A stretch of 64,000 nt of DNA from an uncultured Alphaproteobacteria bacterium. Lineage in GTDB: Bacteria; Pseudomonadota; Alphaproteobacteria; Rhizobiales; Xanthobacteraceae. The notes below the pieces were generated by a model. That model was not told the origin of the DNA. It was given only the letters and a program-made list of their open reading frames with translations, and searched no databases. The position numbers were made by a program, and so were the translations under genes. Within the stretch, counting starts at the first letter, position 1, and every line of letters begins with the position of its first letter. Location of the stretch: the NCBI GenBank assembly GCA_963825015.1, contig CAWGRN010000021.1, positions 3,295 through 67,294 of the forward strand, given 5' to 3'. Positions 5,197 through 64,000 of this stretch are shown here, piece by piece.

Positions 5197-5344
5197 CGGC
5201 GGTTCCATCTGTGCGAGTTGTCCCCAGACTTTTCACGCAACCCAGCCCTGTAAAATTGCAAAGCCCGCGCGACTCTCTATCAAAGGTACCCGCGCACCCC
5301 TGTTTCGGCCGGGCTTAGTCGGGATACTGGGCGCAGGAACGATA

Positions 5345-6091
5345 ATGAGCGGCGAGCTGATTTCGCTCCACATGCTGTTGATCGCGGCCGAGCCGCCGGA
5401 TCAATCGCTATGGCGTGAAGCCGCGGCCATGGCATCCGTTCCAATCGAACTCGAAGTGCTTGAGGTTGCGCGCGCCGCTGCCGCGATCGCCCGATGCACC
5501 GCCGATATTTGCGTGCTCGATGCGGGTTTGTCCGATGCCCACAGGGCCATCCTCGTCAAGGCGGCAAGCGCGGCGCAGCCGCGGCCATTGATGTTCGTGT
5601 CCGCGCCGGCAGGCGGCGCTCGGGTCGAAGGCGTCGATGGCACATTGACCAAGCCGAACAATGTGGATGAGGCCCGCAAACTGGTCCAGCTATGCATCCG
5701 CGCAAGGCTTCCGACCCGTGTGTTGGTCGTGGACGATTCCGGCACCATGCGCAGCATTGTGCGCAAGACCTTGTTGGCGAGCCATTTCATATTCGATATT
5801 CACGAAGCGGCGGAAGGCAACGCCGCGCTTGAACGATTGCGCAACGGCAAATTCGGCATGGTATTTCTCGATTACAACATGCCCGGCCTTAACGGCTTCG
5901 AGACTTTGACGGAAATCAAACGCCTGTGTCCCGATGTCGCCGTGGTGATGATGACGTCGACGATCGACAACGCCGTCGCCGACCGGGCGCATGCCGCGGG
6001 CGCCCATGGCTTCCTCAAGAAGCCGTTTTATCCGGCGGATATCGACGCGTTGGTAGAGCGCCATTACGGCTTGAACGCATCGCGCGGCTAA
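5345..6091 (+). CDS. Response regulator with a degenerate N-terminal receiver and an intact C-terminal receiver, no output domain
   Basis: C-terminal VLVVDDS, FLDYNMP, MMTS, KKPF; the N-terminal half has VLDAGL and TKP but lacks the acidic pair. Confidence 0.85.
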   Translation: MSGELISLHMLLIAAEPPDQSLWREAAAMASVPIELEVLEVARAAAAIARCTADICVLDAGLSDAHRAILVKAASAAQPRPLMFVSAPAGGARVEGVDGTLTKPNNVDEARKLVQLCIRARLPTRVLVVDDSGTMRSIVRKTLLASHFIFDIHEAAEGNAALERLRNGKFGMVFLDYNMPGLNGFETLTEIKRLCPDVAVVMMTSTIDNAVADRAHAAGAHGFLKKPFYPADIDALVERHYGLNASRG

Positions 6092-6130
6092 ATTTTTTTA
6101 AGGAATAGCCGAGGCCGCGGCGGGACGCGG

Positions 6131-6400
6131 CTACTGGCGCTGCTGCGGCTCGATCGAGAATTCGCCGTTGCGGATGCGGGCGCCGAGCCCTTCGGTGAAA
6201 GTGGCGGCCGCGTCCTCGCCATAAGTGGTGACGAATTCGGCCAGGGCGGCGAACAGGCAGGCCTGCGCCAGGCAGTCGCCGTCGATGCCGTCGAGCTTGG
6301 CTTCGGCCCAGGCTTCATGCAGGTAGCCCAAAGCCACGCGCTTCTGCTCGTGGTCCGGCACAGGCTCGCGCGTGTGAGTGGATCGCCCCGCTGTCGTCAT
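6131..6400 (-). CDS. Small helical hypothetical protein
   Basis: Clean ORF with host-like codon usage (QKRVALGYLHEAWAEAKLDGID...RIRNGEFS); start taken at MTTAGRST. Confidence 0.75.
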   Translation of the reverse strand: MTTAGRSTHTREPVPDHEQKRVALGYLHEAWAEAKLDGIDGDCLAQACLFAALAEFVTTYGEDAAATFTEGLGARIRNGEFSIEPQQRQ

Positions 6401-6494
6401 TGTCACCTTTGTCCCCTGGTATCCGTCGAGGGACACCAGTCCCAAGTCCCGATTTGGACGTTAGCACGCGGGGCCAACCGACCAAGCCCGGACC

Positions 6495-6524
6495 TAAAGG
6501 AAAGGTTAATAACGCACGGTTTAA
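6495..6524 (-). promoter_or_regulatory. Tandem near-consensus CtrA-type sites
   Basis: Minus strand reads TTAA-ACCGTGC-GTTA TTAA-CCTTTCC-TTTA, upstream of 6131..6400. Confidence 0.5.
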
Positions 6525-6913
6525 TTAGCGTATCGCGCGGTGATTTCGCGGGCGATCTTGGCGCCTTCATCGAGATATCGGCGAATCACCACATCGGCGG
6601 CGGGCGTACAGGTGCGATAGGTCTGCTGAAACCCGCGGTAACCACGATTGAAGCTGGCGACAATTTGGCGCCGCCGTTCGCCATTGGGCGCCTCGGCGTC
6701 GACCAAAGCCTGCATCTCGTTGCGCCATTTCTGGCCTTCATTGGCGCCGCAGACCCCGCGCAGATATTGCAGCGAGCCGAGGATCTCAGCGAGCCGCTGC
6801 AGGTCCTTGTCGAACGGCGCTGACTCGCCTTCCGCGGCGCGCGCCGGCAGCGTCAGGCACATCAGGATCGCGCCGATGGTCAGCAGCTTTTTCACGCTCG
6901 GAGACCCAGCCAT
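6521..6913 (-). CDS. TIGR02301-family exported protein
   Basis: Signal peptide; LQRLAEILGSLQYLRGVC...WRNEMQAL...FNRGYRGF...CT. Confidence 0.85.
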   Translation of the reverse strand: MAGSPSVKKLLTIGAILMCLTLPARAAEGESAPFDKDLQRLAEILGSLQYLRGVCGANEGQKWRNEMQALVDAEAPNGERRRQIVASFNRGYRGFQQTYRTCTPAADVVIRRYLDEGAKIAREITARYAN

Positions 6914-6962
6914 GGTGGCGGCTGATATGCCCTTGCTCTGAGGCAATCGCAAGGCACGCGGT

Positions 6963-7406
6963 TCAGACCTTTCCGGCCAACAGATCGACGGCGGCGGCAA
7001 CGATCTCCGCCAGGCCTTCGGTGGTGCGCATGCCCGCAAGCTCCGCCGGCACGATCCAGCGCGCATCGTCGAGTTCCTCGTTGAGCACCGGCTCGCCCGA
7101 GAGCCAGCGCGCGGCAAAACACAGAATCACGAAATGCCGCTCGACGCGGCCTTGCGCGTCGCGCATCACCGCCTCGCGATGACCGGCGAGCGCCACCGGC
7201 TCGATTTCGAGCGCGGTCTCCTCGCGCACTTCGCGGGCGACCGCTTCGAACAGCGTTTCGCCGGCTTCAACGACGCCGCCCGGCATGGTGTAGAGATTGA
7301 GCGCCGGTTTGCGGGCGCGCCGCACCACCAGCACCTTGCCGTCGCGCAAAATGGCGGCGCTGACGGCGAGAAACGGGCGCGTGGGATAGGTTCTAGCGTC
7401 TGACAC
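6963..7406 (-). CDS. NUDIX hydrolase
   Basis: Nudix box GGVVEAGETLFEAVAREVREETAL; GTG start at VSDARTYP. Confidence 0.92.
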   Translation of the reverse strand: MSDARTYPTRPFLAVSAAILRDGKVLVVRRARKPALNLYTMPGGVVEAGETLFEAVAREVREETALEIEPVALAGHREAVMRDAQGRVERHFVILCFAARWLSGEPVLNEELDDARWIVPAELAGMRTTEGLAEIVAAAVDLLAGKV

Positions 7407-7411
7407 AGCCA

Positions 7412-7939
7412 CTATATTTTCATCAGCCCGTCGACCACCGCTTGCGGCGCCGGCGATTGGCCGAAACCAGTTTCGCCGTTGATCACCGCGCCGGCGCGCG
7501 CCACCAGCGGTCTGAGCCAGGCGGCGGCGCGATCGGCCAGCAAGCCCGCCGCCTCGCACGGCATGTCGGTCGTCATCGCCGCGCGCGTTGCCTCTAGCAC
7601 GGCGGTCATGGTGGCGGCCAGCGAGTCCAGGCAGTTGCGCAGAACCGGATCGGCGGTCTCGTAGGCCGCGATCGCCAGGTCGCGGCCGGTAAAGCGCGAG
7701 GCCGCGAAATGCTCGCGATAGCTCATCGGCCGCCAGCCGAGAAAATCGTCGATGCAATCGGGACAGTCCGACAGCATTTCGAGCAGCATGATGGCTTCGT
7801 TGAAATGGTTGAGATAGTCGGTGGCAAGCCCGGTCGCCGGATTGATGTTGGCGTCGGCCAGCCGTGGCGCGCAGGCGTCCGCGCCGCCGCACGCCGCGTC
7901 GGCCGCTTGCACCGCTTCGCCGCCATCCTGATATTTCAT
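7412..7939 (-). CDS. Hypothetical protein
   Basis: Clean ORF containing INPATGLATDYLNHFNEAIMLLEM...SYREHF. Confidence 0.75.
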   Translation of the reverse strand: MKYQDGGEAVQAADAACGGADACAPRLADANINPATGLATDYLNHFNEAIMLLEMLSDCPDCIDDFLGWRPMSYREHFAASRFTGRDLAIAAYETADPVLRNCLDSLAATMTAVLEATRAAMTTDMPCEAAGLLADRAAAWLRPLVARAGAVINGETGFGQSPAPQAVVDGLMKI

Positions 7940-14476: not shown

Positions 14477-16203
14477 CCAAGCGTAAACGTCCCGAAGACC
14501 TGCGCAGCCATCGCTGGCTCGGCGAAGACGACCTGCGCTCGTTCGGCCACCGCGCCCGGTTCCGGCAGGGCGGCTTCGACGCGCCGGACTGGGTCGGCAA
14601 GCCGGTGATCGGCATCATCAACACCTGGAGCGACCTCAATTTCTGCCACACTCATCTGCGGGCGCGCGCCGAGGACGTGAAGCGCGGCGTGTGGCAGGCC
14701 GGCGGCTTTCCGGTCGAACTGCCGGCGATGTCGCTGTCGGAGCCCTTCGTCAAACCGTCGACCATGCTCTACCGCAACCTGCTGGCGATGGAGACCGAGG
14801 AACTGCTGCGCAGTCATCCGATCGACGGCGCCGTGCTGATCGGCGGCTGCGACAAGACCACGCCCGGCCTGCTGATGGGCGCGATCAGCATGGGCGTGCC
14901 GGCGATCTACGTGCCGGCCGGTCCGCAGCTCCGCGGCAACTGGCATGGCCAGACGCTCGGCTCCGGCTCGGATGCCTGGAAATACTGGGACGAGAAGCGC
15001 GCCGGCACGATCACCAAGGCGCAGTGGGACGAGATCGAAGGCGGCATCGCCCGCTCGTTCGGCACCTGCATGGTCATGGGCACCGCGGCGACCATGATGG
15101 CGATCACCGAGGCGCTCGGTCTGCACGCTGCCGGGCGCGTCGTCGATCCCCGCCGCCGACGCCGCGCATCCGCGCATGTGCGGCGAATTCCGGCCGCCGC
15201 ATCGTCGACATGGTGTGGGAGGATCTGACGCCGCAGCGCATCCTGACGCACGGCCGCGTTCGACAACGCCATCCGCGTGCACATGGCGATGGGCGGCTCG
15301 ACCAACGCGATCATCCACGTGGTGGCGATGGCGCGCCGCGCCGGCCTTTCGCTCGACATGAACCGCTTCGACGAGATCTCGCGCGAGATTCCGGTGCTGG
15401 CCAATGTGCGGCCGTCGGGCGGCTACCTGATGGAAGATTTCTTCTACGCCGGCGGCTTGCGCGCGCTGATGGCCGAGCTGAAAGACACGCTCGATCTGTC
15501 CTGCGCCACCGTCACCGGCAAGACCATCGGCGAAAATATCGCCGGCGCCGAAGTCTACAACCGCGACGTCATCCATCCGTTCAACGATCCGGTCTCGACC
15601 GAAGGCGCCACCGCCGTGCTCACCGGCAATCTGGCGCCGCGCGGCTGCGTGATGAAACCGTCGGCGGCGGAAAAGCGTCTGCTCAAGCACCGCGGCCCGG
15701 TCATCGCCTTCGAGGACTACAACCACATGGCGCGCGAGGTCGAGCGCGACGATCTCGACGTTACCGCCGACCATATTCTGGTGCTCAAGAACGGCGGGCC
15801 CAAGGGCGGCCCCGGCATGCCGGAATGGGGCATGCTGCCGATCCCGAAAAAACTGGTGAAGCAGGGCGTGCGCGACATGCTGCGCATTTCCGACGCGCGC
15901 ATGAGCGGCACCAGCTACGGCGCCTGCATTCTGCATGTCGCGCCGGAGAGCTTCGTCGGCGGTCCGTTGGCTTTCGTGCAGACCGGCGACGAGATCGAAG
16001 TCGACGTCGACGCGCGCCGCATTCATCTGCATGTGTCGGATGAGGAACTCGCCCGCCGCCGCGCCGCCTGGAAACAGCCGGCGCCGTATTATCCGCGCGG
16101 CTACGGCGCGCTCTATTCGGCGCATATCGGCCAGGCCGACGAAGGCTGCGATTTCGATTTCCTGGCGCCGCTTGGGCCGATTCCGGAACCGGAAATCCAT
16201 TAA
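14473..16203 (+). CDS. IlvD/Edd-family dehydratase (sugar-acid, L-arabinonate dehydratase-like), frameshifted at about 15125-15255
   Basis: NTWSDLNFCH, GGCDKTTPG, GTCMVMGTA, GGSTNA, GPKGGPGMPE, SDARMSGTSYG. Confidence 0.9.
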
Positions 16204-16347
16204 CGCGGTATCCAGAAACCGCGCGCTGCAATTCGAAACAACGCGAAATCATTTTGTTCACTATCTTGGGCAAGAGCGCGCATCCGTAAGGTAAAACGTC
16301 ATCATCTGGAGGCGCACTATCCCCTTCGATAGAAGGGAAGTGTGCCC

Positions 16348-17183
16348 ATGCGTGCGCCATTTTTGAAACTGGCATTTTCCGCGTTGCTCGCTATTCCGCT
16401 GTTGGCGGGTCACGGCGCTGCTCGCCGCGACCGCTGCGCCTCGGCCGGGACCGGCGGCATCATCGAAGCGATGAAGCAAATCGGCTCCGAAATTCACCGC
16501 CGCGACCGGCGTCAAGTTGCAAGTCATCGTCGGCCTCGGCAGCAGCGGCGCGATGCGCGCGCTTGCGCGACGGCAAGCTCGACGTCGTCGTCTCCGGCCG
16601 CGCCGCTCAATCCGGACGGAAGCGAAGGGCCGCTGGTCTGGCATCCGCTTTGCGCGAACGCCGTTGGTCTTCGTCACGTCGCATCCGAAGCCCAATGGAT
16701 TGAAGACCAGCGATCTCGCTGCAATCTTCGCGGCGGACAAGTCCGACATGGCACGACGGCACCCCGCTCAAGATCATTCTGCGCACCAAGAGTCGACACG
16801 GACACGGCGCTGATCGAGCGGACTATTCCCCGGCATGGGCAAGCGATCGAAGCGTGCGCGGCAGCGGCCCGATGTTCCGGTCGCGGCGACCGATCAGGAC
16901 AACGTCAATCTGGCTCAACGCCTGGCGCGGATCGTTCAGCCTGGCCGGCTACGGCCAGATCAACGCCGAGAAATCGCGACCTGCGCATGATGCCGCTCGA
17001 TGGCGTCGAGCCGACATCTCGACACCCTGGAAAACGGGACCTATCGCGTACGAAAAGAAATTCTATCTCGTGTTCGCGCGGGATCGAAACGCCGGCGCCG
17101 AGCAGTTCCTGCAAATTCCTGCGCTCGGCCGAAGGCCGTCAAGGCTCTGCTGGCGGCCGGCAACCTTGCCGGCTGGCGAGTAG
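16348..17183 (+). CDS. Periplasmic substrate-binding protein (PstS/PBP-like), many frameshifts
   Basis: Signal peptide; reconstructed segments GTGG, GLGSSGAMRAL, FARTPLVFVTSH, VPVAATDQDN, LDGVEPT, LENGTY. Confidence 0.7.
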
Positions 17184-19435
17184 GTGGCGACGCCCGATGT
17201 GGACCGCTACGCACCCTCGTCGCCGCGATCGGCCTGGTCGTGATCGCTGACGATCGTTCGTCGATTCCCTGCGGCTATTTCTATGTCGAGCTATGCGAAC
17301 TCATCGCACGAGCTGACTTTCAAGTCGCGAGCTGGCCGCCGCGCGCGTCGCCAAATACGTCTATATGCACCACGACACCTGTGGCAGTATCAGGCGCTGC
17401 GCATCGCCGAATTGATCGAACTTGCCGAGGCGGACGGCAAGACCTATTGCGCTGAGAGTCCACGACGAGGCCGGCGCCGTTGTCGCCGAGTGCAGGGCCG
17501 GCGTTGCGCACGCCGGTCATGGTTCGCAGCCATCCGATCGTCGTTTCCGGCGCCGTTATCGGCCGGGTCGAGGCCGCGACGCAGCCTGCGATCCGCTGTT
17601 GTGGCGAAACCGGCCTTGTCGCGCTGCTCAGCGTCATTGTTCGGCATCGCCGTCTATTTCGCCGTGCGCGTCTTTCCGCTGCAAGGTGCTCGATCGCACT
17701 CTGGGGGCGCTGGAGGCTGCCAAAGCGACGATCGAGGACAGAAACAAGCAGTTGGCGGCGCAGAACGAACGCTTCGACGCCGCGCTGACAAACATGTCGC
17801 AAGGCCTTTGCATGTTCGATGCGAACGGAAAACTTGTCATATTTAATCGGCGCGTTGCCGAAATTTACGGCCTGCCGATTGAAATGATCAAGCCAGGCAT
17901 GACGACGCCTGAGTTGATGGCAGTCGCGTTCGGCCAAGGCAGTAGTCGCGGATGTGGACCCCGAAGGCACGCTTGCGCTGCGGGAGGTTATTGCTCGCGA
18001 GCGCAAAGCGGGCTCGATGATCGAACGACTGACCGACGGCCGCAGCATCACACTTTCATTTCAGCCCATGCCGACCGGAGGCTTCGTCGTCACATTCGAG
18101 GACATCACCGAACGCCTTCTCGCCGAGGAAAAGATCAGGCACTTGGCGCATTTCGATGCGCTCACCGACCTGCCGAACCGGGTGAGTTTCTATGAACGAA
18201 TGGAAGTGGTCCTGAGCCATTTGCGACGTTCCGAAACCATCGCAGTTCTGAGTCTCGACCTCGACCACTTCAAGAGCGTCAACGATACGCTCGGCCATCC
18301 CATCGGGGATCTGTTGCTGAAAGCAGCGGCCGAGCGCATGCGCAGTTGCGTTCGCGGCGAAGACATCGTGGCCCGATTGGGCGGGGACGAATTTGCCATC
18401 CTGCAGGTCCCGTCTGAAGAGCCGCGGGATGTCACCGCGCTGGCTCAGCGTCTCATCGAGGTTGTTGGGGCGCCCTATGATCTCGACGGCCATCAGGTGG
18501 TCGTGGGCGCCAGTGTCGGTATCGCAATCGCGCCGAACGACAGCGAGGTGCCGGACGTCCTCATGAAGAACGCCGATCTGGCGCTTTACCGCGCCAAAGC
18601 CGACGGCGGGGGTGTCTATCGCTTTTTCGAAGTCGCAATGGACGCCCGCATGCAAGCGCGCCGCGCCCTCGAACTCGATCTTCGCAAAGCGGTCGTGAAT
18701 GGCGAGTTCGAGCTTTACTATCAGCCGATCATCGACGTCAAAACCGGACAGATTACCAGCTGCGAGGCTCTCATCCGCTGGCATCATCCCGAACGCGGCA
18801 TGATTCCGCCGCTCGAGTTCATTCCGGTCGCGGAAGAAACCGGTCTCATCGTGCCGATAGGAGAATGGGTACTGCGGCAGGCCTGTGCCGAGGCGGCGCG
18901 CTGGCCCAAGCACGTGACCATCGCGGTGAACCTCTCGCCGGCGCAGTTCAAGAGCCGGAACTTGGTGCCGACCGTGATCAGCGCGCTGGCGACATCCGGT
19001 CTTCCGGCCGCCCGTCTGGAGTTGGAGATCACCGAACTGGTGCTGTTGCAGGATAACGAGGGCGCTTTCGCCATTCTTCATCAACTCCGCCATCTCGGCA
19101 TCAAGATCGCGATGGATGATTTTGGCACCGGCTATTCGTCGCTCGGCTATCTTCGCAGCTTCCCGTTCGACAAGATCAAAATCGACCAATCCTTCATCCG
19201 CGATTTGCCGGAGAAACTGGACAGCGTCGCGATCGTGCGCGCCGTGGTCGGGTTGAGCAGCAGCCTTGGCATCACCACCACCGCCGAAGGCGTGGAGACC
19301 AAGGAGCAGCTCGCCAGCCTGACGGCGGAGGGTTGCACCGAATTCCAGGGCTTCCTCTACAGCCGGCCGCAACCGGCAGCCGACATGCAGCGCATGCTCG
19401 CTCTGCGGGGGCCGAAAGCCGAAGCCGTCGCCTGA
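17184..19435 (+). CDS. Membrane-anchored 2TM-PAS-GGDEF-EAL diguanylate cyclase/phosphodiesterase (5' part frameshifted)
   Basis: Two hydrophobic segments; PAS (FDAALTNMSQGLCMFD); RGEDIVARLGGDEF; CEALIRW; DDFGTGYSSL; EGVE. Confidence 0.88.
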
Positions 19436-54224: not shown

Positions 54225-54299
54225 TGGGGCGTAGCCAAGTGGTAAGGCAGCGGATTTTGATTCCGCCATCCCCTGGTTCGAATCCAGGCGCCCCAGCCA
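54225..54299 (+). tRNA. tRNA-Gln (anticodon TTG)
   Basis: TGGGGCG/CGCCCCA acceptor stem, anticodon arm GCGGA-TTTTGAT-TCCGC, GGTTCGAATCC, encoded CCA. Confidence 0.97.
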
Positions 54300-54529: not shown

Positions 54530-55153
54530 TTACGTCGCTTGCGTGGGAACGGTCCAAGGTCGCTGTATTAGGTTGGCAGCTTTGAACGCATTGATCTCGC
54601 TTCGGAAGGATCTCGGTGAGATCGATATCGTCCCATCCGTTCAAGCAGGCGAGTTCGGCGCGCGGGATCGATCGTGAATTGAAAACGCAATTCGCCGCAC
54701 ACAATCGTTTGCCGCTCGAGATCGACCGTCACCGGCAATGCCGGCTCGCGCGCCAGCGCCAGCTGTTAACGCCGCACCTTCGGCGTCGGTCACCAGCGCC
54801 GTCAACAAACCGTTCTTGGTCGCGTTCTGCGAAAAGATATCGCCGAACGAGGGCGCGATGACGCAGCGGATGCCGTAGTCGTAAAGCGCATAGACCGCGG
54901 CTTCGCGCGACGAGCCGCCGCCGAAATTTCGTCCGCCGGCAATAATTTTCGCCTCGCGCCACGGCGACTTGTTCAAGGCAAAGTCCGGCTTTTCGTGGCC
55001 CTGCGCATCGAATCGCAAATCGTTAAACAGCACTTTGCCGTGCTCGCCTTTGCGCGGCAGCTTGAGATAGCGCGCCGGCAAAATCTGATCGGTGTCGATA
55101 TTCTCGGCCGGTAGAGGGCAGGCGATGGCCGTGATGCGGGTGAATTTTTCCAT
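54530..55153 (-). CDS. LeuD-like hydratase/isomerase small subunit (paralog), frameshifted
   Basis: NIDTDQILPARYL, NFGGGSSREAA, APSFGDIF, NGWDDIDLT. Confidence 0.88.
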
Positions 55154-55156
55154 ACC

Positions 55157-56564
55157 TCAGGCCTTCCGCATCAAAGGCCGCATGTCGGCGAGATGGCCGC
55201 TGACAGCGGCGGCGGCGACCATCGCCGGCGACATGATATGCGTGCGGGCGCCGACGCCCTGGCGGCCGCGGAAATTGCGGTTGGTGGTCGAGGCGCAACG
55301 TTCGCCGGACGCCACCAGATCGCCATTGATGCCGACGCACATCGAACAGCCGGAGTCGGCCCATTCCAGTCCGGCGTCGCGGAACAGGCGGTCGAGACCT
55401 TCTTCTTCCGCCTGACGTTTGACGCTGGATGAGCCGGGCGACACCAGGCCCGGCACCTTGCTGACGCGATTGGCGAGAATGGCCGCCGCGGCGCGCAGAT
55501 CCTCGATGCGCGCATTGGTGCAGGAGCCGATAAAAACCCGATCGATCGCGATATCGGTCAGCTTCTCGCCGGGCGAGAGGCCCATATAGTCGATGGCGCC
55601 GCGGATATATTTGGCACGCTCCGGATTTTGTTCGCGCGCGGGATCGGGAACGCGGCCATCGATCGGCAGCGCGTCCTCCGGACTGGTGCCCCAGGTGACA
55701 AACGGCGCCACCGTCGCCGCATCGAGCGCCACTTCACGGTCGAACGTTGCGCCGGAGTCGGATTTGAGTTCGATCCAATCTTGCTATGGCCTGGTCGAGC
55801 GCGTCGCCCTTAGGCGCGAACTCGCGACCTTTGAGATAGTCGAAGGTCGTTGCGTCCGGCGCCACGATGCCGCAGCGGCCGCCGGCTTCGATCGCCATGT
55901 TGCACAAGGTCATGCGGCCCTCCATCGAGAGCGCACGGATCGCGGAACCGGCGAATTCGATGGCATGGCCGCTGGCGCCATCGGCGCCGATCTTGGCGAT
56001 GATGGCAAGCGCGATATCCTTGGCGCCGAGTCCTTCGGCCAGCTTGCCGTCGACGGTTATGCGCATGCGCTTCGGCTTTTTTTGCCACAGCGTCTGCGTC
56101 ATCAGGACATGCGCCACTTCCGATGCGCCGATCCCGAAAGCAAAAGCGCCGAATGCGCCATGGGTCGAGGTGTGGCTGTCGCCGCAGACGATCAGCAGGC
56201 CCGGCAGGGTCAGGCCCAATTCCGGTCCGACGACATGGACGATGCCCTGGCGGCGATCTTTCAAGCCCGAACAGAGTAATGTTCTGATCGGCGGTATTCT
56301 TGTCGAGTTGGCTGACCATGCGCGCGATTTCGGGATTGGGAATTGATTTGTTGCGGTCCGCGCGTCGGCACGTAATGGTCGGCGACGCCGAACGTCAGCC
56401 CCGGCTCGGCAACCGATGGCGCCCCGTTCGGCAAGCCGGCTGAAGCCGTGAAACGATCCTTCGTGCACGTAGTGGCGATCGACCCAGAGCAAGCTCTCGC
56501 CATCGCGCTGCACGATCTCGTGGCTCGACCAGAGTTTGTCGAAGAGGGTCAGCGGCGCGTTCAT
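55157..56564 (-). CDS. LeuC-like [4Fe-4S] hydratase/isomerase large subunit (paralog), frameshifted
   Basis: [44 protein letters not shown]. Confidence 0.9.
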
Positions 56565-56683
56565 GCGACTATTTAGCGCTTGAGGGGCATTGCAGTCGAA
56601 CGGCCATATTGTATGCTAAATAATACCTAGTAAAGCGTCCGCCCTTTCACCAAGGCCTGACGCTGGATGCGGCGGGGGTTGGT

Positions 56684-57502
56684 GTGGCGGATCGGTTGCA
56701 GGAAGCCAAGGCGCGCCAAGTCTATCTCGTGTTGCGTGACCGCATCATGAGCGGCGCCATGATTTTCGGCGCACGGCTTCCCAATGAAAACGATCTGGCG
56801 CGGGTGCATGGCGTATCGCGCGTTACCGTGCGCCGCGCGTTGGGCGAATTGCAGCGCGAGCATTTGATCGAGCGGCGGCGCAGCGCCGGAACTCGGGTGG
56901 TGTACCGGCCATAGCCCTCGCGCATGACCGCCGACATCTCCGGTGTGTTGGCCAATCTGGCCGATATGGGCCGCAGCACCAAGGTGCAATTGCTGTCGTT
57001 CGACTATGTGCAAGCGAGCGGTGCGGCCGCCGAGGCGCTGGGCGCCGGCGAGCATGAAATGCTGCAGCGTTCGGTGCGGGTACGTTCGGTCGACGGGTTG
57101 CCGTTTTCCTATCTGCTCGCGCATGTGCCGGAACGGATCGGCGTCACCTTCAGCGCCAAGGACCTGGCCGACCGCCCGTTGCTTGAATTGCTGGAACGCT
57201 CGGGCGTCAAGGTCGAGCGTGCGACGCAACGGATTTCCGCAGGTCTTGCGGCGCCCGACGTTGCCCGCGCGCTCGGAGTCAAGACCGGCTCGCCGCTGAT
57301 CGAACTGGTGCGCACCGTCTACGATCGCGATGGCCGCGGCGTCGAGCATCTGCATGCGCTGTACCGGCCGGATCGTTACAGCTTCGAATTCGATCTGGTC
57401 CGCTCCGGCGGCGCCAGAAAAAAGAGCTGGTCGGCGTTGCCGCTTGCGCTTCGCAAACCAACGAGAAGGTCGAAATCGTCTACCAACATTCCATTCATCT
57501 GA
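56684..57502 (+). CDS. GntR (HutC/UTRA) transcriptional regulator, interrupted by an in-frame TAG at 56912
   Basis: wHTH LPNENDLA...VSRVTVRRAL; the UTRA domain continues in the same frame (RSVDGLPFS...YRPDRY). Confidence 0.85.
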
Positions 57503-57519
57503 GCGAAAGGAAGGACATC

Positions 57520-58761
57520 ATGTCGAACACCAACAATCGATTCAGTCGCCGCAAATTCCTGCAATCGTCCGCACTGACGGCCGCCGCGGCCGCGAGCGGC
57601 ACGCTCGCCGCGCCGTCGATCTTGCGCGCCCAAGGCGGCGCCGTAAAAGTCGGATTCTTGCAGCCGGTATCGGGCGCATTGGCCTATTCCGGTCAGCAGG
57701 GCCGGCTTGGCGCATCGATCGCGGTCGAGGAAATCAACGCCGCCGGCGGCATCAAGGGCATGGGCGGCGCCAAGATCGAGCCGGTGCTCGGCGATGCGCA
57801 ATCGACGCCGGAAGGCGGCAATGCCGAAGTCGAAAAGATGAATTCGGCCGGCGTCTCGGCCATCGTCGGCGGCTACGCCAGCTCGATCTGTCTTGCGACC
57901 ACGCAGACCGCGGCGCGCTACGAACTGCCTTATATCGTGGACGTCGGCGTCACCGACGCCATCGTCACGCGCGGATTGAAGAACACCTTCCGCTTCGGTC
58001 CCGGATTTGGCGTGATCGCCAAGACCGCGCTCGCCAACCTTGTCGCCATCAACGACAAGGCCGGCAAGCCGGCCAAGACCGTGATGATCGTGCACGAGGA
58101 TTCGGCGTTCGGCTCCGGTCTCGCCAAGCTGCTCAATGCCCAGCTTCCGCCGCAAGGCTTCGAAGTGTTGGAAACCATCCCGCATCCGACGCCGACGCGC
58201 GATTTCAACAACGTCGTGCTCAAGATCAAGGCGGCCAACCCGGACATCGTCATTCCGGCCAACTACTACAATGAGTATGTGCTGCTCGCGCGCACCATGC
58301 AGCAGCAAAAGGTGCGGCCGAAGGCGGCGATCTACTCGGTGCTCGGCGGCGCGGCGTCGTCCTACAAATTCGTCAAGGAATTCCCGGAGGCGGCGCAATA
58401 CATCATGGATTGCAATCACTGGTTCGATCCGCGCAATCCGAAGGCACTGGCCCTGAAAAAGAAGGTCGAGGCGCAAGGCCAGTTCTTCACCTACGAGGTG
58501 TATATGAACTACAGCTGCGTGCTGCTGCTGGCGGACGCCATCGACCGTGCCAAGTCGGCCGACCGCGCCAAGATCACCGAGGCGCTCGCCAGCTCGACCT
58601 TCGCCGGCCACGTCATGCCTTATGGGCCGACGAAATTCGTCAACGGCCAGAACCAGGGCGCGGCGCCCGCCAACACGCAGGTGATCGGCAACGATATCCA
58701 GGTGATCCTGCCGGAAGCCTTCGCGTCGGCGAAGCCGGTTTATCCGTTGCCGCCGGCTTGA
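57520..58761 (+). CDS. LIV-type ABC transporter substrate-binding protein with Tat signal
   Basis: SRRKFL twin-arginine motif; PVSGALA, EEINAAGGI, GGYASS. Confidence 0.92.
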   Translation: MSNTNNRFSRRKFLQSSALTAAAAASGTLAAPSILRAQGGAVKVGFLQPVSGALAYSGQQGRLGASIAVEEINAAGGIKGMGGAKIEPVLGDAQSTPEGGNAEVEKMNSAGVSAIVGGYASSICLATTQTAARYELPYIVDVGVTDAIVTRGLKNTFRFGPGFGVIAKTALANLVAINDKAGKPAKTVMIVHEDSAFGSGLAKLLNAQLPPQGFEVLETIPHPTPTRDFNNVVLKIKAANPDIVIPANYYNEYVLLARTMQQQKVRPKAAIYSVLGGAASSYKFVKEFPEAAQYIMDCNHWFDPRNPKALALKKKVEAQGQFFTYEVYMNYSCVLLLADAIDRAKSADRAKITEALASSTFAGHVMPYGPTKFVNGQNQGAAPANTQVIGNDIQVILPEAFASAKPVYPLPPA

Positions 58762-58778
58762 TGAAGAGGCTCGTCGCA

Positions 58779-58804
58779 GCGGCGCCGAAAAGTCCCGGCG
58801 CCGC
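58779..58804 (+). other. Intra-operon stem-loop after the binding-protein gene
   Basis: GCGGCGCCG-N8-CGGCGCCGC. Confidence 0.55.
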
Positions 58805-58828
58805 CGCGACGGCGCCGGCCTCGGCCGG

Positions 58829-59707
58829 GTGGCGCCCGTGCATTTAAGCATCCTCCTTCCTGCGATCCTCAACGGTCTGCTGACCGGCGCCGTCTACGCG
58901 CTGATCGCGCTCGGCCTGACGCTGGTCTATGGCGTGCTGCACATCATCAACTTCGCCCACGGCGCGATGCTGACGGCGGCGCTGTTTGCGGCATTCTTCA
59001 TGCACAAACTATTCGGCATCGATCCTTATCTCGCCGTGTTCATTCTGATGCCGGCATTTTTTGCGCTCGGCTATGGCCTGCAGCGCTTCGTCATCGGCCC
59101 CGCGGCGCATGGCAATGACGGCAATATCCTTTTGGTGACGCTCGGCCTCTCCGTGGTCATTGAAAATGCGCTGCTCTATTTCTTTCGCGCCGATACCCGC
59201 ACCATCGACGTCAGCTATGGCTTCGACGTCGTGCCGATCGCCGGCATGTTTCTCTCGACGCCGCGGCTGGCCGGATTTGCCGGCGCGGTCGTCGTCGCGC
59301 TGCTGCTGTGGCTGCTGCTGACATTCACCGATACCGGCAAGGCCATTCGCGCGGTGGCGAAGGAGAAGCTCGGCGCGCAATTGTCCGGCATCGATGTCGC
59401 GCATATTTACGCCGTGACCTTCGGCCTCGGAGCCGCCTGCGTCGCCATCGCCGCCTGCCTGTTGATTCCGACCTATTACGTCAATCCGCATGTCGGCAAT
59501 GCTTTCGTGCTGATCGCGTTCACCACCGTGGTGCTGGGCGGCATGGGCTCGATCCCCGGCGCGCTGATCGGCGGGCTGTTCGTCGGCGTCGTCGAAAGTC
59601 TGTGCGGTCTTTATCTCGGTGAATCGCTCGGCCAGATCGGCATCTTCCTGATGTTCATTCTGGTTCTGCTGTTTCGGCCGAGCGGGTTGTTGGGAGAGCG
59701 GGCATGA
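58829..59707 (+). CDS. LIV-type ABC permease (LivH-like)
   Basis: YALIALGLTLVYG...NFAHG, GKAIRA, VLGGMGS, RPSGLLG. Confidence 0.92.
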   Translation: MAPVHLSILLPAILNGLLTGAVYALIALGLTLVYGVLHIINFAHGAMLTAALFAAFFMHKLFGIDPYLAVFILMPAFFALGYGLQRFVIGPAAHGNDGNILLVTLGLSVVIENALLYFFRADTRTIDVSYGFDVVPIAGMFLSTPRLAGFAGAVVVALLLWLLLTFTDTGKAIRAVAKEKLGAQLSGIDVAHIYAVTFGLGAACVAIAACLLIPTYYVNPHVGNAFVLIAFTTVVLGGMGSIPGALIGGLFVGVVESLCGLYLGESLGQIGIFLMFILVLLFRPSGLLGERA

Positions 59708-60693
59708 GCCGCGCCGGCTTTCTCCCGATTGTCGCAGTGGTCGCGGCGCTGGCGTGCATTCCGTTCGTCACCAGTTCGAACGTCGTGCTCAACTTTCTCG
59801 TGGTCGCGCTGCTGCTCACCCTGGCGGGGCAGGGCTGGAACATCCTCGGCGGCTATGGCGGCCAATATTCGTTCGGCCACGCCGCGTTTTTCGGCACCGG
59901 CGCCTATGCGACGGCGATCCTGCAAGTGCGTTACGGCCTCAATGCCTGGCCGGCTTTCGCCATCGGCATTGCGGCGGGCGCGGGCGTTGGCGCCGTGATC
60001 GGCGCCTTGACGTTCCGCTCAGGGCTGCGCGGGTCATATTTCGCGCTGGTCACGCTGGCCTTTGCCGAAGTGCTTCGCATCGTCGCCAGCGTGGCGCCGA
60101 TCACCGGCGCCGGCGTCGGCACCTTGATCAAGCTCGATCTCAGCGCGCGCGCGCTGCAATTCCCGAGCCGGGCGGCGTTCTATTGGTTCATTCTGGCGCT
60201 GGTCGCGGTGGCGCTTGTCATCACCCGGCTGATCGAGCAATCGCGCTTCGGCGCCTGGCTGGTGGCGGTGCGCGAGAACGAAGACGCCGCGCGCGCGCTT
60301 GGCGTCGACGCCACCCGCGTCAAACTGGGCGCCATGACGATATCGGCGGCGATGGCCGCGGCCGCCGGCTGCTTCTATGCGCAGTATTTCCTGTTCATCG
60401 ACGCCGGCATTGCCTACGGGCCGTGGATTTCGGTCGAAGCGCTGCTGGCGCCCATCATCGGCGGCGTCGGCACGGTATTCGGGCCGCTGCTCGGCGCGCT
60501 GATGGTCAAGATGCTGGGCGAGGCGGCCAAGCAGTTCACCGGCGACGTGCCCGGCCTCGACCTTGTGGTCTATGGCGTCGTGCTGATTCTGGTGATTGCT
60601 TTCGCGCCGCGCGGCGTCGCCGGCATCATTGCGCAGCTACGCGGCTGGTTGATGCCGCCGGCCAAAAAATTGCGGGAGGCCGCGCATGGTTGA
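59704..60693 (+). CDS. LIV-type ABC permease (LivM-like)
   Basis: WNILGGYGGQYSFGHAAFFG, YFALVTLAFAE, VRENEDAA. Confidence 0.92.
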   Translation: MSRAGFLPIVAVVAALACIPFVTSSNVVLNFLVVALLLTLAGQGWNILGGYGGQYSFGHAAFFGTGAYATAILQVRYGLNAWPAFAIGIAAGAGVGAVIGALTFRSGLRGSYFALVTLAFAEVLRIVASVAPITGAGVGTLIKLDLSARALQFPSRAAFYWFILALVAVALVITRLIEQSRFGAWLVAVRENEDAARALGVDATRVKLGAMTISAAMAAAAGCFYAQYFLFIDAGIAYGPWISVEALLAPIIGGVGTVFGPLLGALMVKMLGEAAKQFTGDVPGLDLVVYGVVLILVIAFAPRGVAGIIAQLRGWLMPPAKKLREAAHG

Positions 60694-61441
60694 ACCGATT
60701 TTGGCGGTCGAAGGTATTTCCAAGCAATTCGGCGGCTTGCGCGCGGTGCACGAGGCGTCGCTGAGCGTCGAGAGCGGCCGCATCACGGCGGTGATCGGGC
60801 CGAACGGCGCCGGCAAGACGACCTTGTTCGCCATGATCACCGGCTTCTTGACGCCGACCGCCGGGCGCATCGTCTACAATGGCGGCGACATCACCGGCAT
60901 GCCCGCCGCACCGGCTGGCGCGGCAAGGCATCGCGCGCACGTTCCAGATCGTCCAGCCATTCGCCGGCCTGTACGGTTTTGGAAAATATCGCGGTCGGCT
61001 CTCATCTGCACATCGCCGGCCGCGCGGCGGCGCTCGCGGCTGCCGCCGATGTCGCCAAGCTGGTCGGGCTCGACGCCATGTTGCAACAGCCCGCGTCGAC
61101 GCTGACGGTGTCCGGCCGCAAGCGGCTCGAATTGGCCCGCGCGCTGGCGACGACGCCGAAATTATTGCTGCTCGACGAAGTTCTCGCCGGCCTCAACCCG
61201 TCTGAAATTCGCGACGTGTTGCCGATCATCCGCGCCATTCGCGAACGCGGCGTGACCATCTTGATGATCGAGCATGTGATGCAGGCGGTGATGAGCCTCG
61301 CCGAGAAAATCTATGTGTTGGTGGAGGGCCGCGTCATTGCGCAGGGGCCGCCCGCGGCGGTCGCCGCCGATCCGAAAGTGATCGAGGCCTATCTCGGCGC
61401 CGGCGCCGCGGCCCGGTTGGCGGGAGGCGCGCATGGCCTAA
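60686..61441 (+). CDS. LIV-type ABC ATPase (LivG-like), frameshifted
   Basis: GPNGAGKTT, GIARTFQ, LLLDE, IEHVM, VIEAYLG. Confidence 0.9.
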
Positions 61442-62163
61442 TAGCCTGCGCGCTGAACCGCTTCTGCAAGTTCGCGGCTTGCACGCCGGCTACGGCGAAA
61501 CCGAGATCTTGCGCGGCATCGATCTCGTGGTCGGGTCCGGCGACATCGTGGCCGTGCTCGGTTCGAATGGCGCCGGAAAATCGACGCTCAATCTCGCGAT
61601 TTCCGGACTGGTTCCGGCCGCGCGGCGGCTCCATCGAGTTCGACGGCCGTTTCATCCACGACGCCAGCCCGTCCGCGATTGTCGCCTCGGGGCTGATCCA
61701 CGTGCCGGAAGGCCGCCGCATTTTTCCCAACATGTCGGTCGCCGACAATCTCGATCTCGGCAGCTATCGCCGCGCGGCGAGCCGCCGCGCGGCGAACCGT
61801 GAGCAGGTTTTTTCCATGTTTCCGCGCTTGCGCGAACGCGCGTCGCAGCGCGCCGGTACGCTGTCGGGCGGCGAACAGCAGATGTTGGCGATCGGCCGCG
61901 GCCTGATGGCCGAGCCGAAACTCCTGATCCTTGACGAACCTTCGCTCGGCCTTTCGCCGCTGCTGGTGGAGGAAATGTTCGCCATGATCCTGCGACTTAA
62001 CAAAGACGGACTCGCGGTGCTATTGGTCGAACAAAACGTGGTGCAAAGTCTCGACATCGTGCATCGCGCCTACATTCTCGAACACGGCAGCTTTGTCATG
62101 TCGGGCAGTGCCGCCGACATTCGCTCCAACGCCGATCTCAAGCGCGCTTTTCTCGGATTATAG
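61433..62163 (+). CDS. LIV-type ABC ATPase (LivF-like), frameshifted
   Basis: GSNGAGKST, VPEGRRIF, LSGGEQQM, LDEPSLGL, VEQN. Confidence 0.9.
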
Positions 62164-62165
62164 CC

Positions 62166-63067
62166 ATGACCCAACAGAACACGTTGCGCTCGCTGCTGTC
62201 GAAGCCGCCGATTGTGGTTGCTCCGGGCATTTACGATCCGCTGACGGCGCTGATTGCGACCCGGGCCGGTTTTCGCTCGCTGTATATATCCGGCGCGGCC
62301 ATCGCCTATACGCGGCTCGGGCGGCCGGACATCGGGCTGGTGAGCATCACCGAAGTGGTCGAAACCGTTTCGCTGATCCGCGACCGCGTTGACGCCAATC
62401 TGATCGTCGATGCCGATACCGGTTACGGCAATGCGCTCAATGTCGAACGGACGGTGCGGCTGCTTGAGAAATCCGGTGCCGAGCGCAATCCAGATCGAGG
62501 ACCAGGGCTTTCCCAAGCGCTGCGGCCATCTCGACGACAAGACGCTGATCCCGGCCGCTGAAATGGCCGGCAAGATCAAGGCCGCGGTCGACGCCCGCCA
62601 TTCGAAAGACACGCTGATCATCGCGCGCACCGATGCGGTCGCGGTCGAAGGCTTCGATCAGGCTGTCGAACGCGCGCTGCATCTACAGGGATGCCGGCGC
62701 GGACGTCTTGTTTATCGAGGCGCCGAAGGCGCGAGAGGAACTCGCTAAGATCGTCAAGCAGGTCGGCCGCGCGCTGCCGCTGATGGCCAATATGGTCGAA
62801 GGCGGCAAGACACCGATGCTGTCGGCGGCCGAACTCGAAACGCTCGGCTTTTCGCTGGTCATTTTTCCCGGTGGCATCGTGCGTACGCTGGCCAAGACCG
62901 CGGGCGAATATTACGCCTCGCTCGCCGCCCATGGCAGCACCCAGCCGTTCCGCGATCGTATGTTCGATTTCGACGAACTAAACGGCCTGCTCGGCACGCC
63001 GGAAATAATCGAGCGCGGCAAGCAATATGAAGTGACGTCAGCGCCGAATAGCAAGAACCGCCAGTAA
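62166..63067 (+). CDS. Isocitrate lyase/PEP mutase-family C-C lyase (PrpB/Dml-like), frameshifted
   Basis: YISGA, DADTGYG, IEDQGFPKRCGH, ARTDA, NMVEGGKTP. Confidence 0.9.
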
Positions 63068-63085
63068 GCGAAGGAAAGTCTCGCT

Positions 63086-64000
63086 ATGGACAAGGTTTTC
63101 GATACCATCATCAAGAACGCCCGAGTGGTTCGACCCAACAAGACCTCGGTCGATTGTCTTGATATTGCGGTCAAGGATGGAAAGATCGCGCGGCTCGGTC
63201 CGGAAATTCAGGCCGATCTCGCTAACAAGGTCTTTGACGCTAAGAATCGCCTCGCGTTCCCGGGTTGCGTCGACGCGCATATGCATATCGGCATTTATGC
63301 GCCGCTCGCCCAGGACGCGCTTTCTGAGAGCAAGGCCGCGGCGATGGGAGGAGTTACCTCTAGCCTGAATTACCTGCGCACAGGACACTACTATCTCAAT
63401 CGAGGCGGCCCTTATCGCGAATTCATGCCCGAGGTGTACAAGCAATCGGAGGGGCGGTTTTGGGTCGACTACGGATTTCATCTTGCGCCGATCGAAGAGG
63501 CGCATATCGATGAAATGGAGTATCTGGTCACAGAACATGGCGTGACCTCGTTCAAGATTTTCATGTTCTACGGCGGCTATGGGCTGCACGGTGCATCGTC
63601 GCAGCAAAATGATTTTTTGATGATCGGGCCCGACGAGCGATACGACATCGCGCACTTCGAGTTCATCATGCGGTCGGCGCAGCGCCTGATGGCTAAATTT
63701 CCGGAGCAGGCCGCCCACATCAGCGTCAGTCTGCATTGCGAACTCGCAGAGATCCTGACCGCCTATACAAAGATCGTGGAACGCGAGGGCAAGCTGACCG
63801 GTCTGCATGCCTATAGTGCCGCGCGTCCGCCACATTCCGAGGGTCTTGCCATCTGGATTGCATCTTATCTGGCAAATGAAACCAATTGTCTGAACATCAA
63901 TCTCTTGCACTTGAGTTCACGCAAAGCAGTCGATGCCGCGTGGACCATGCAGCAGGTCTTTCCGCATATTGCTTTCCGCCGCGAAGTGACTGTCGGCCAT
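63086..64000 (+). CDS. Cyclic amidohydrolase (hydantoinase/allantoinase/dihydroorotase family), truncated by the window end
   Basis: Not in the ORF track; my translation: MDKVFDTIIKNARVVRP...PGCVDAHMHIG...AAAMGGVT...SFKIFMFY...LHCE...LLHLS. Confidence 0.9.
   Translation, partial: MDKVFDTIIKNARVVRPNKTSVDCLDIAVKDGKIARLGPEIQADLANKVFDAKNRLAFPGCVDAHMHIGIYAPLAQDALSESKAAAMGGVTSSLNYLRTGHYYLNRGGPYREFMPEVYKQSEGRFWVDYGFHLAPIEEAHIDEMEYLVTEHGVTSFKIFMFYGGYGLHGASSQQNDFLMIGPDERYDIAHFEFIMRSAQRLMAKFPEQAAHISVSLHCELAEILTAYTKIVEREGKLTGLHAYSAARPPHSEGLAIWIASYLANETNCLNINLLHLSSRKAVDAAWTMQQVFPHIAFRREVTVGH

Follow-up and report, generated by a model that had tools for sequence, protein, structure and literature searches.

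What would a cell do with a leucine-type hydratase, an importer, a carbon-carbon lyase and a cyclic amidohydrolase encoded side by side next to a tRNA-Gln gene, and can it use them when most of these genes are broken as assembled? The question is raised by a locus in a long-read metagenome-assembled genome (MAG) of Pseudolabrys (Xanthobacteraceae), which comprises 4.38 Mb in 27 contigs and is rated 74.7% complete. The window, that is, the whole stretch of 64 000 nucleotides analysed here, is C21:3295-67294, with 7.3 kb of contig C21 remaining to its right; positions given without a contig name are those of the window. Taking identity, mechanism and the state of the genes together, we lean, if only slightly, towards reading the stretch as one copy of a conserved catabolic regulon, which would import a cyclic amide, open its ring, hydrate the product and cleave it to pyruvate and an acid, and whose broken frames would be errors of assembly. 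No published account of the cluster was found in the literature searched.

Conservation of the cluster and its proposed ring-opening step

The cluster is real, conserved and widespread among proteobacteria. A search at the DNA level found it in synteny in nine or more genomes of the genus, and a search with the lyase recovered 80 orthologue loci (54-80% identity) in Xanthobacteraceae (Pseudolabrys), Azospirillum, Roseibium, Marinobacter, Saccharospirillum, Halomonas, Limnohabitans and Oryzisolibacter. Isolates with the cluster include Pseudolabrys sp. Root1462, Rhodoplanes serenus DSM 18633, Azospirillum melinis, Bradyrhizobium sp. YR681, Roseibium limicola and Marinobacter oulmenensis. That the genes occur together had been predicted from the window alone, and they were indeed found together in many genomes of Alpha-, Beta- and Gammaproteobacteria. 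Neighbours were counted at the 45 loci with full 10-kb flanks, and were classed by tblastn, clustering and Pfam/NCBIfam. An aconitase-family hydratase was present at 42 of the 45 (30 of the bacterial LeuC' (LeuCD) type and 12 of the hacA / LeuD-DmdB type), a ring-opening amidohydrolase at 41 (26 with HyuB plus HyuA, nine with an AllB-like enzyme as in the window and six with a PuuE-like pair), an isochorismatase-like hydrolase at 33 and a flavoprotein at 31; ring opener and hydratase stood together at 38. The transporter varies by lineage, being a LIV-type ATP-binding cassette (ABC) importer, a tripartite ATP-independent periplasmic (TRAP) transporter or a TctC (tripartite tricarboxylate transporter, TTT) system, and some lineages add a PrpD-family protein (nine loci) or a tautomerase-SnoaL fusion. 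In several genomes (L099, L070, L083, L109 and L061) all the cluster genes are packed on the same strand in shuffled order, with the lyase falling between transporter and HyuB or between flavoprotein and hydratase. What sets the present copy apart is the AllB-like ring opener and the tRNA-linked location.

Two relatives showed further arrangements. In G018 a second gene of the phosphoenolpyruvate (PEP) mutase/isocitrate lyase (ICL) family lies directly downstream of leuD' (L035:17520-18458), besides the cluster lyase. In G014 (C93:159125-181036; L037, L038) the leuD'C' pair is some 14 kb away from the remaining cluster genes, and the intervening genes include a second GntR-type regulator and a further PEP-mutase-like open reading frame (ORF).

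In the window the ring-opening gene begins at 63086, 18 nt after the stop of the lyase gene, and runs on the plus strand past the window end at 64000 to about 64545; the lyase, amidohydrolase and flavoprotein genes come close behind the transporter genes. Its translation is that of a cyclic amidohydrolase resembling allantoinases and hydantoinases. The nearest solved structures are the allantoinases 3e74 and 8hfd (about 160 bits), the protein stays below the cut-offs for AllB (232-237 against 357.85 bits) and D-hydantoinase (about 200 against 393.25 bits), and the residues of a binuclear metal site (HxH, Lys, His, His, Asp) are legible, by eye against the family pattern, in DAHMH, SFKIFM, SLHCE, LLHLSS and VSDHAC. 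An enamidase, the analogy drawn for this step in the initial annotation, was considered and rejected, as there was no enamidase among the protein's PDB matches.

The AllB-like and PuuE-like ring openers are nearest to the two known allantoinase types, and both scaffolds, PuuE-like and hydantoinase/AllB-like, include known cyclic imidases (PMC9304392). For HyuAB of the relatives the best NCBIfam names are those of the caprolactamase subunits, at 485 and 300 bits against a cut-off of 1000. Since three non-homologous enzyme families fill the same position, there is good evidence, drawn from gene content, that the opening of a cyclic amide would be integral to the pathway, and the ring-opening step proposed at the outset is upheld by the HyuAB, AllB-like or PuuE-like enzymes at 41 of the 45 loci. 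The swap of three unrelated ring openers at one position also provides a clean natural experiment for the assignment of function.

In G009, G014, G017 and G018, HyuB/HyuA (oxoprolinase family) and an isochorismatase-family hydrolase follow directly after the lyase. An oxoprolinase or isochorismatase had been predicted to the right of the window, which proved correct for these relatives but not for the AllB-like variant present here, which lacks both. Instead, the contig continues with, in order, the end of the amidohydrolase gene, an FAD_binding_2 flavoprotein and a DDE/insertion sequence (IS) transposase remnant, beyond which lie a cytochrome b561/dihaem cytochrome c fusion and then a monooxygenase dependent on flavin adenine dinucleotide (FAD). 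The isochorismatase-like protein is nearest to triuret/biuret hydrolase-like cysteine hydrolases and to RutB, which are terminal amide/ureido hydrolases, and the AllB-like enzyme here occupies the place that HyuB, HyuA and the isochorismatase-like protein hold elsewhere. A search of the present (incomplete) genome for a second amidase gave only HyuAB paralogs of 31-41% identity and no isochorismatase-like match. Of the import and opening of an imide as first envisaged, the opening of a cyclic amide is backed, while the present variant is without the second amidase that an imide route needs.

The flavoprotein resembles soluble fumarate and urocanate reductases. Compared with flavocytochrome c3 (1d4c), it keeps His365, Thr377 and His505 and has Tyr for the catalytic Arg402 and, at the carboxylate-binding positions, Tyr for Arg545 and Val for His504; with 243.6 bits it does not meet the TIGR01813 cut-off of 285.45. 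Chemistry like that of succinate/fumarate or tricarballylate dehydrogenases was considered for it and rejected, both arginines being replaced. Judged from these residues, the target of the flavoprotein may be the ring or a side chain.

The same neighbourhoods could be envisaged as two independent units side by side, with the hydratase and lyase serving an imported alkyl- or carboxyalkyl-maleate/malate (citraconate, citramalate) and a separate nitrogen-scavenging module serving hydantoins, ureides or pyrimidine-like rings. At four of the 45 full loci (e.g. L058 and L101) hydratase and lyase are accompanied by a transporter, TctC or another, and not by a ring-opening enzyme, the ring openers have their closest matches among allantoinases and the isochorismatase-like protein has its own among ureido/biuret hydrolases, and it is general knowledge that a flavoprotein, a ring hydrolase and a ureido hydrolase mirror the three steps of reductive pyrimidine catabolism. 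We nevertheless regard such a partition as doubtful, given the packed single-strand arrays of shuffled order in many lineages and the 38 of 45 loci that hold both ring opener and hydratase.

Interrupted reading frames and a probable tRNA-Gln island

ORFs, Pfam and ARAGORN located every gene named in the initial annotation, in the order given there. Missed there was that most of the genes are broken: seven of the ten protein genes of the window are interrupted as assembled, which leaves the binding protein and the two permeases as the only whole ones. Frameshifts split leuD', leuC', livG, livF and the lyase gene each over two or three frames, and gntR is interrupted by a single in-frame TAG. 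In leuD' there are about three 1-bp insertions, near 54611, 54643 and 54761; leuC' changes frame near 55785, 56262, 56355 and 56417, livG near 60902 and 60973 and livF near 61612; the lyase gene runs over three frames, with breaks near 62481 and 62681. The amidohydrolase gene is unbroken within the window, with one 1-bp insertion near 64404 outside it, and the flavoprotein gene just beyond the window end is also broken. The TAG of gntR lies at 56912-56914, where the closest relative (G002), which served as comparison for the window genes, has CAG; read through the stop, the amino-acid identity is 92.6%.

Nucleotide alignment to G002 showed that the breaks are nearly all 1-bp insertions outside homopolymers. 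Such insertions number 11 in the 9.7 kb of the cluster (1.1 per kb), against 1.5-1.6 per kb for core genes on the left side of the tRNA gene. Here rpoB is split into two frames by a 1-bp insertion, while it is intact in G002 and G009, and a survey of 96 orthologues drawn from two relatives, in samples of 20 kb, counted 65 frame changes, spread over 11 contigs, within 120 kb of orthologous coding sequence. Because core genes are hit at a similar rate, rpoB is split and completeness is low despite a genome of full size in few contigs, the frameshifts and the stop in the cluster are most likely assembly errors, and the organism probably has a working cluster.

A cluster that is a decaying, non-functional remnant, with real frameshifts and a real stop in a horizontally acquired, unused island, would also account for some 11 insertions of a single base, and one nonsense substitution, inside 9.7 kb, the more so beside the IS transposase remnant immediately to the right, in a segment whose G+C is below that of the flank and which belongs to a variable region beside a tRNA gene. 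We consider decay unlikely. Core genes to the left of the tRNA gene carry 1-bp insertions of this kind at least as often, one such insertion splits the essential rpoB, and the errors are genome-wide, with the surveyed frame changes spread over 11 contigs. Moreover, they are insertions, whereas bacterial gene decay typically shows deletions, and identity to relatives is higher in protein than in DNA (93% amino-acid against 86.5% nucleotide identity to G002 for the amidohydrolase). There is a practical warning in this, namely that long-read MAGs with about one insertion per kb make healthy operons resemble pseudogene graveyards.

Over window positions 1-54000, abutting same-strand ORF pairs in different frames and gaps without long ORFs were observed, for instance at 1063-2281, 5193-7415 and 16200-17918. 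These ORF breaks agree with genome-wide indel noise, and other findings from the window should be read accordingly.

The tRNA-Gln gene (anticodon TTG, detected by ARAGORN) lies at 54225-54299 on the plus strand. The last 18 nt of its 3' end recur exactly 16.9 kb downstream, outside the window, at C21:74522-74539, and the only other genomic copy of this repeat is on contig C11, whose sequence there is a duplicate of the C21 end. The left flank and the tRNA gene are found in 25 of 25 genomes of the genus, whereas the right flank has substantial matches in two only (G042 and G010), and G+C, which is 0.65-0.69 left of the tRNA gene, drops to 0.55-0.64 within the cluster. The HyuAB-variant cluster of G009 and G018 lies 260-420 kb from the tRNA gene, and in other genomes there is no tRNA-Gln near the cluster. 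The direct repeat and the variable region beside a conserved flank speak for the tRNA-Gln island first suggested, and support placing the cluster on an island of roughly 17 kb, in the present lineage only. Within the segment, neither the ORFs of 110 amino acids or more nor Pfam scans of the unassigned ones revealed an integrase, and there was none beside the tRNA gene of G002 either. An empty site was likewise not seen, as the right flank was never beside visible tRNA hits in the two matching genomes of the genus and had no match in 87 kb of G002.

G002 has the same flank and tRNA gene, followed by a 54.5-kb insert (C19:748195-802753; L013-L015, L003) before the cluster, and this insert closes, 270 bp short of the cluster, with 16 nt repeated from the end of the G002 tRNA gene. 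This arrangement suggests tandem accretion at one tRNA hot spot. The insert starts with a broken permease and a molybdopterin oxidoreductase rather than with an integrase.

Two observations concern the far end of the tRNA-bounded segment. The cytochrome b561-dihaem cytochrome c fusion and the FAD monooxygenase, which is salicylate-hydroxylase-like, occupy L001:15446-18210 (C21:71445-74209) and recurred beside the cluster in no other locus examined. In addition, C21:72810-74552 repeats C11:167689-171241 in inverted orientation; 1.4 kb match at 99.5% identity and a further 109 bp exactly, the two blocks being separated by a 1.8-kb indel. The ends of C21 and C11 probably overlap or are strain variants of one locus, and this repetition may explain the contig break.

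Hydratase, lyase and the proposed pathway

The hydratase genes lie on the minus strand. The gene leuD' (about 54545-55153) encodes the small subunit of an aconitase-family hydratase of the bacterial LeuD type, as identified by Pfam Aconitase_C and by tblastn and nucleotide alignment with G002, and leuC' (55157-56564) encodes the large subunit, its two Pfam Aconitase halves standing in different frames. The motifs GDSHT, GSCTN, CSMC and NRNFRGRQG in LeuC' and GGGSSRE in LeuD' are legible in the window translations, so that the Fe-S cluster cysteines and catalytic motifs of LeuCD are present. Profile scores for the two genes were taken on intact orthologues, the window copies being split. LeuC' of G018 scored 649.1 bits and passed the TIGR00170 leuC cut-off of 560.25, and its LeuD' scored 169.6 bits and passed the TIGR00171 leuD cut-off of 116.25, as well as NF002458; no curated equivalog cut-off other than those of the leuC/leuD models was reached by any cluster protein. 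LeuD' failed TIGR02087, the LeuD/DmdB family (71-74 bits against a cut-off of 108.95), which the alternative small subunit of other lineages passed with 176.1 bits. As LeuC'D' passes the leuC/leuD cut-offs and fails that of LeuD/DmdB, its profile assignment is to the bacterial LeuCD type and not to relatives of DmdAB or HbzIJ. The DmdAB/HbzIJ likeness put forward for the pair in the initial annotation does not hold at this locus; a DmdB/hacA type is found in other lineages, at 12 of the 45 loci.

That the pair is a paralog had also been proposed, and here the evidence agrees. The genome has a second set of leuCD genes, an intact canonical leuC (471 amino acids) with leuD and leuB, all on contig C8; neither leuB nor a bona fide prpB was found on contig C21, in a search that did not cover leuA, prpC and prpD. 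In a maximum-likelihood tree canonical LeuC formed one clade (SH-aLRT 99) that excluded all 29 cluster-linked LeuC' of the bacterial type, and each of five cluster-bearing isolates has another LeuC that shows 54-58% identity to the query, while the cluster copies are 63-80% identical. Because canonical leuBCD is on C8 and LeuC' falls outside the canonical clade, LeuC'D' is read, on sequence grounds, as a paralog close to the leucine enzyme and not as the canonical isopropylmalate isomerase. A second isopropylmalate isomerase in plain leucine metabolism, with an ABC system importing branched-chain amino acids and unrelated neighbours, would fit the leuC and leuD cut-offs exceeded by the intact orthologues and the LIV family of the transporter. 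We think this very unlikely in view of the canonical leuB-leuC-leuD set elsewhere in the genome, the position of LeuC' outside the canonical clade and the canonical LeuC also present in all five isolates with LeuC'. It is countered further by the linkage to the lyase over three proteobacterial classes, even with a TRAP or TTT transporter, and by the DmdB/HacA-type enzyme in its place at 12 loci.

The lyase gene (62166-63067, plus strand), traced through its translation, tblastn and profile scores, encodes an ICL/PEP-mutase-family carbon-carbon lyase, ICL', with FPKRCGH in the catalytic KRCGH loop. The intact G014 protein scored 300.6 bits and fails the TIGR02317 PrpB cut-off of 354.4, with PrpB still its best NCBIfam match, and the three pieces in the window together reach about 259 bits. 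The lyase is about as distant from petal death protein as from PrpB and dimethylmalate lyase, and scores about 180-187 bits against each of the solved structures 1mum, 1o5q and 1zlp (PrpB, petal death protein). Across 63 orthologues KRCGH, Arg158, Phe186, Glu188, Asn210, Ile234, Pro236 and Arg241 (PrpB numbering) are invariant, and Thr212, Phe214 and Arg270 of PrpB are replaced by Val, Gly and Phe, invariantly or nearly so. In PrpB the methyl group of pyruvate sits in a pocket made by Phe186, Leu234 and Pro236, and the residues at 212, 214 and 270 hold the distal carboxylate of succinate. Because the methyl pocket of PrpB is kept, with Ile for Leu at 234, the residues suggest that the substrate would be a 2-methyl-substituted malate and that pyruvate would be one product. 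Next to the cluster in three Marinobacter loci (e.g. L098:1-3229) are genes for a GcdH-like acyl-coenzyme A (CoA) dehydrogenase and a homologue of succinate-glutarate CoA-transferase, and in one locus of a Cohaesibacteraceae (alphaproteobacterial) MAG (L061:9076-11375) such genes follow it on the same strand, which weakly suggests glutarate as the second product. A variant end of the methylcitrate cycle for propionate, in which an aconitase-like enzyme would work with a PrpB-like lyase, is hardly credible, for although PrpB is the best NCBIfam match, the methyl pocket and Arg241 are kept and a PrpD-family protein is added at nine loci, the lyase falls short of the PrpB cut-off, has the three distal residues invariantly changed and lives among amide hydrolases and a flavoprotein as constant partners, with no methylcitrate synthase among the recurrent neighbours across loci.

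Import and control are encoded between hydratase and lyase. On the plus strand follow a periplasmic binding protein of the LIV/amide type (57520-58761; Pfam Peripla_BP_6), two permeases with Pfam BPD_transp_2, one LivH-like (58829-59707) and one LivM-like (59704-60693), and two ABC ATPases, the LivG-like livG (about 60686-61440; three high-scoring segment pairs in three frames in tblastn with G002 LivG) and the LivF-like livF (61434-62163; segment pairs in frames 2 and 3). The LIV-type binding protein here and the DctP protein of the TRAP system in Marinobacter had only distant matches among solved structures, which gave no ligand lead. Because TRAP and TTT systems replace the ABC importer in other lineages, the transporters suggest an anionic substrate.

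The regulator gene gntR (56684-57502, plus strand) encodes a GntR-family protein with a UTRA effector domain (HutC subfamily), recognised by Pfam UTRA in the window and by GntR plus UTRA in the G002 orthologue. It is divergent from leuC', with a spacer of 119 bp. An alignment of this spacer from 17 loci revealed a motif, CATATTGTATGCTAAATAATACCTAGTAAAG (56605-56636), which is near-invariant in 15 loci of Pseudolabrys and its closest relatives while the rest of the spacer varies, and of which the Bradyrhizobium spacer has a palindromic version. Its form, GTAT-N8-ATAC, is like that of a GntR/HutC operator, which makes it a candidate binding site of this type.

From these parts a pathway can be proposed, each step of which is deduced from sequence. 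The LIV-type ABC system would import a small cyclic amide, imide or ureide, probably one with a carboxylate, and the GntR/UTRA protein would act as repressor of the genes from the conserved site in the divergent promoter. The AllB/hydantoinase-like amidohydrolase with its binuclear metal site would open the ring here; in other lineages this would fall to ATP-dependent HyuAB or to the PuuE-like pair, usually with an isochorismatase-like amide/ureido hydrolase that would release nitrogen. The fumarate-reductase-like flavoprotein, without the fumarate-binding arginines, would alter the saturation of a carbon-carbon bond beside a carbonyl. The Fe-S hydratase LeuC'D' would then hydrate the resulting substituted maleate, and the lyase, resembling PrpB and petal death protein, would cut a 2-methyl-3-substituted malate to pyruvate and a carboxylic acid, possibly glutarate.

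Several points weigh against this pathway and its working state in the present organism. The step order and the role of the flavoprotein are guesses, and the link to glutarate comes from four of the 80 loci. Without an isochorismatase-like hydrolase the imide or hydantoin route is one hydrolytic step short here, unless the hydrolysis is supplied by a general amidase or by the AllB-like enzyme itself. LeuC'D' lies above the curated leuC/leuD thresholds, which is compatible with isopropylmalate or citraconate activity, and the LeuC tree came from a quick rather than a careful search. As regards the broken frames, the reference G002 carries frame errors itself, its own leuC' and lyase C-termini being out of frame, and intact proteins were taken from G014, G018 and G013. 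The TAG in gntR is a substitution, atypical of the insertion errors of this assembly, and might be a genuine nonsense mutation, in which case the cluster would be derepressed.

As a speculative and rather improbable extension, the cluster could be the missing bacterial route for maleimides derived from tetrapyrroles, chiefly hematinic acid. Hematinic acid, 3-(2-carboxyethyl)-4-methylmaleimide, arises by oxidation of haem, bilirubin and chlorophyll. Ring opening and deamidation would yield 2-methyl-3-(carboxyethyl)maleate, LeuC'D' would convert this to 2-methyl-homoisocitrate and the lyase would release pyruvate and glutarate, while the flavoprotein would treat side-chain or ring saturation, e.g. 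in vinyl or dihydro forms. Such a substrate would fit a lyase that keeps the methyl pocket and Arg241, transporters that depend on a carboxylate, ring openers of the imidase type, glutaryl-CoA genes at occasional loci and the spread over soil and marine hosts; no result here favours hematinic acid over other carboxylated cyclic amides.

Whatever the compound, the gene set is common to many soil, plant-associated and marine proteobacteria, and its logic of import, opening, nitrogen release, hydration and carbon-carbon cleavage is readable. Identification of the substrate would add a pathway for a small nitrogen heterocycle to carbon and nitrogen cycling, and would provide functions for both a large branch of the isocitrate-lyase superfamily that is still an orphan and a LeuCD subfamily that is automatically annotated as leucine biosynthesis.

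Relation to known systems

DmdAB (dimethylmaleate hydratase) and Dml (2,3-dimethylmalate lyase), with which nicotinate fermentation by Eubacterium barkeri ends, are among the closest known systems. As there, a two-subunit aconitase-family hydratase would be followed by an ICL/PEP-mutase-family lyase with pyruvate and an acid as expected products, downstream of the hydrolytic opening of a nitrogen heterocycle, and at 12 of the 45 related loci the hydratase is itself of the LeuD/DmdB family. In contrast to DmdAB, the hydratase of the window is of the bacterial LeuCD type and below the DmdB family cut-off. The nicotinate pathway also has an enamidase step (PMC9304392), whereas the amidohydrolase here is allantoinase/hydantoinase-like and matched no enamidase in the PDB; the cluster is without a B12 mutase, methylitaconate isomerase or hydroxymethylglutarate enzymes, and its hosts are aerobic proteobacteria.

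The lyase shares with PrpB and petal death protein the KRCGH loop, the Mg-site aspartates, Arg158, Glu188 and the Phe186/(I/L)234/Pro236 pocket; its Arg241 is as in PrpB and its NM(V/I)EGGKTP segment as in petal death protein. Unlike PrpB it has Val212, Gly214 and Phe270, scores under the cut-off and has no methylcitrate synthase among its recurrent neighbours, although hydratase and lyase would work in the same manner as at the end of the methylcitrate cycle. In the relatives, HyuB-HyuA paired with an isochorismatase-family hydrolase recalls creatinine degradation by the ATP-dependent N-methylhydantoinase (HyuAB) and N-carbamoylsarcosine amidase. Compared with HyuAB and the caprolactamase CapAB, the window variant is without both proteins and has a single AllB-like enzyme instead, and the scores of the relatives are far under the cut-offs.

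The cyclic-imide pathway of Blastobacter sp. A17p-4 reportedly proceeds through an imidase, a half-amidase and a maleate hydratase to the oxidation of D-malate. Compared by description, this bacterium being a relative in the same order, the two have imide opening, amide hydrolysis and maleate hydration in common, and differ in that an ICL-family lyase would end the pathway here and D-malate oxidation does so there. Reductive pyrimidine catabolism, with dihydropyrimidine dehydrogenase, dihydropyrimidinase and ureidopropionase, is similar in its flavin-dependent change of ring saturation, opening by a cyclic amidohydrolase and ureido hydrolysis; it uses other enzyme families at its first and last steps and is without the link to a hydratase and a carbon-carbon lyase. 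The chemistry of the cluster is a variation on known catabolic kinds, and the cluster itself is widespread.

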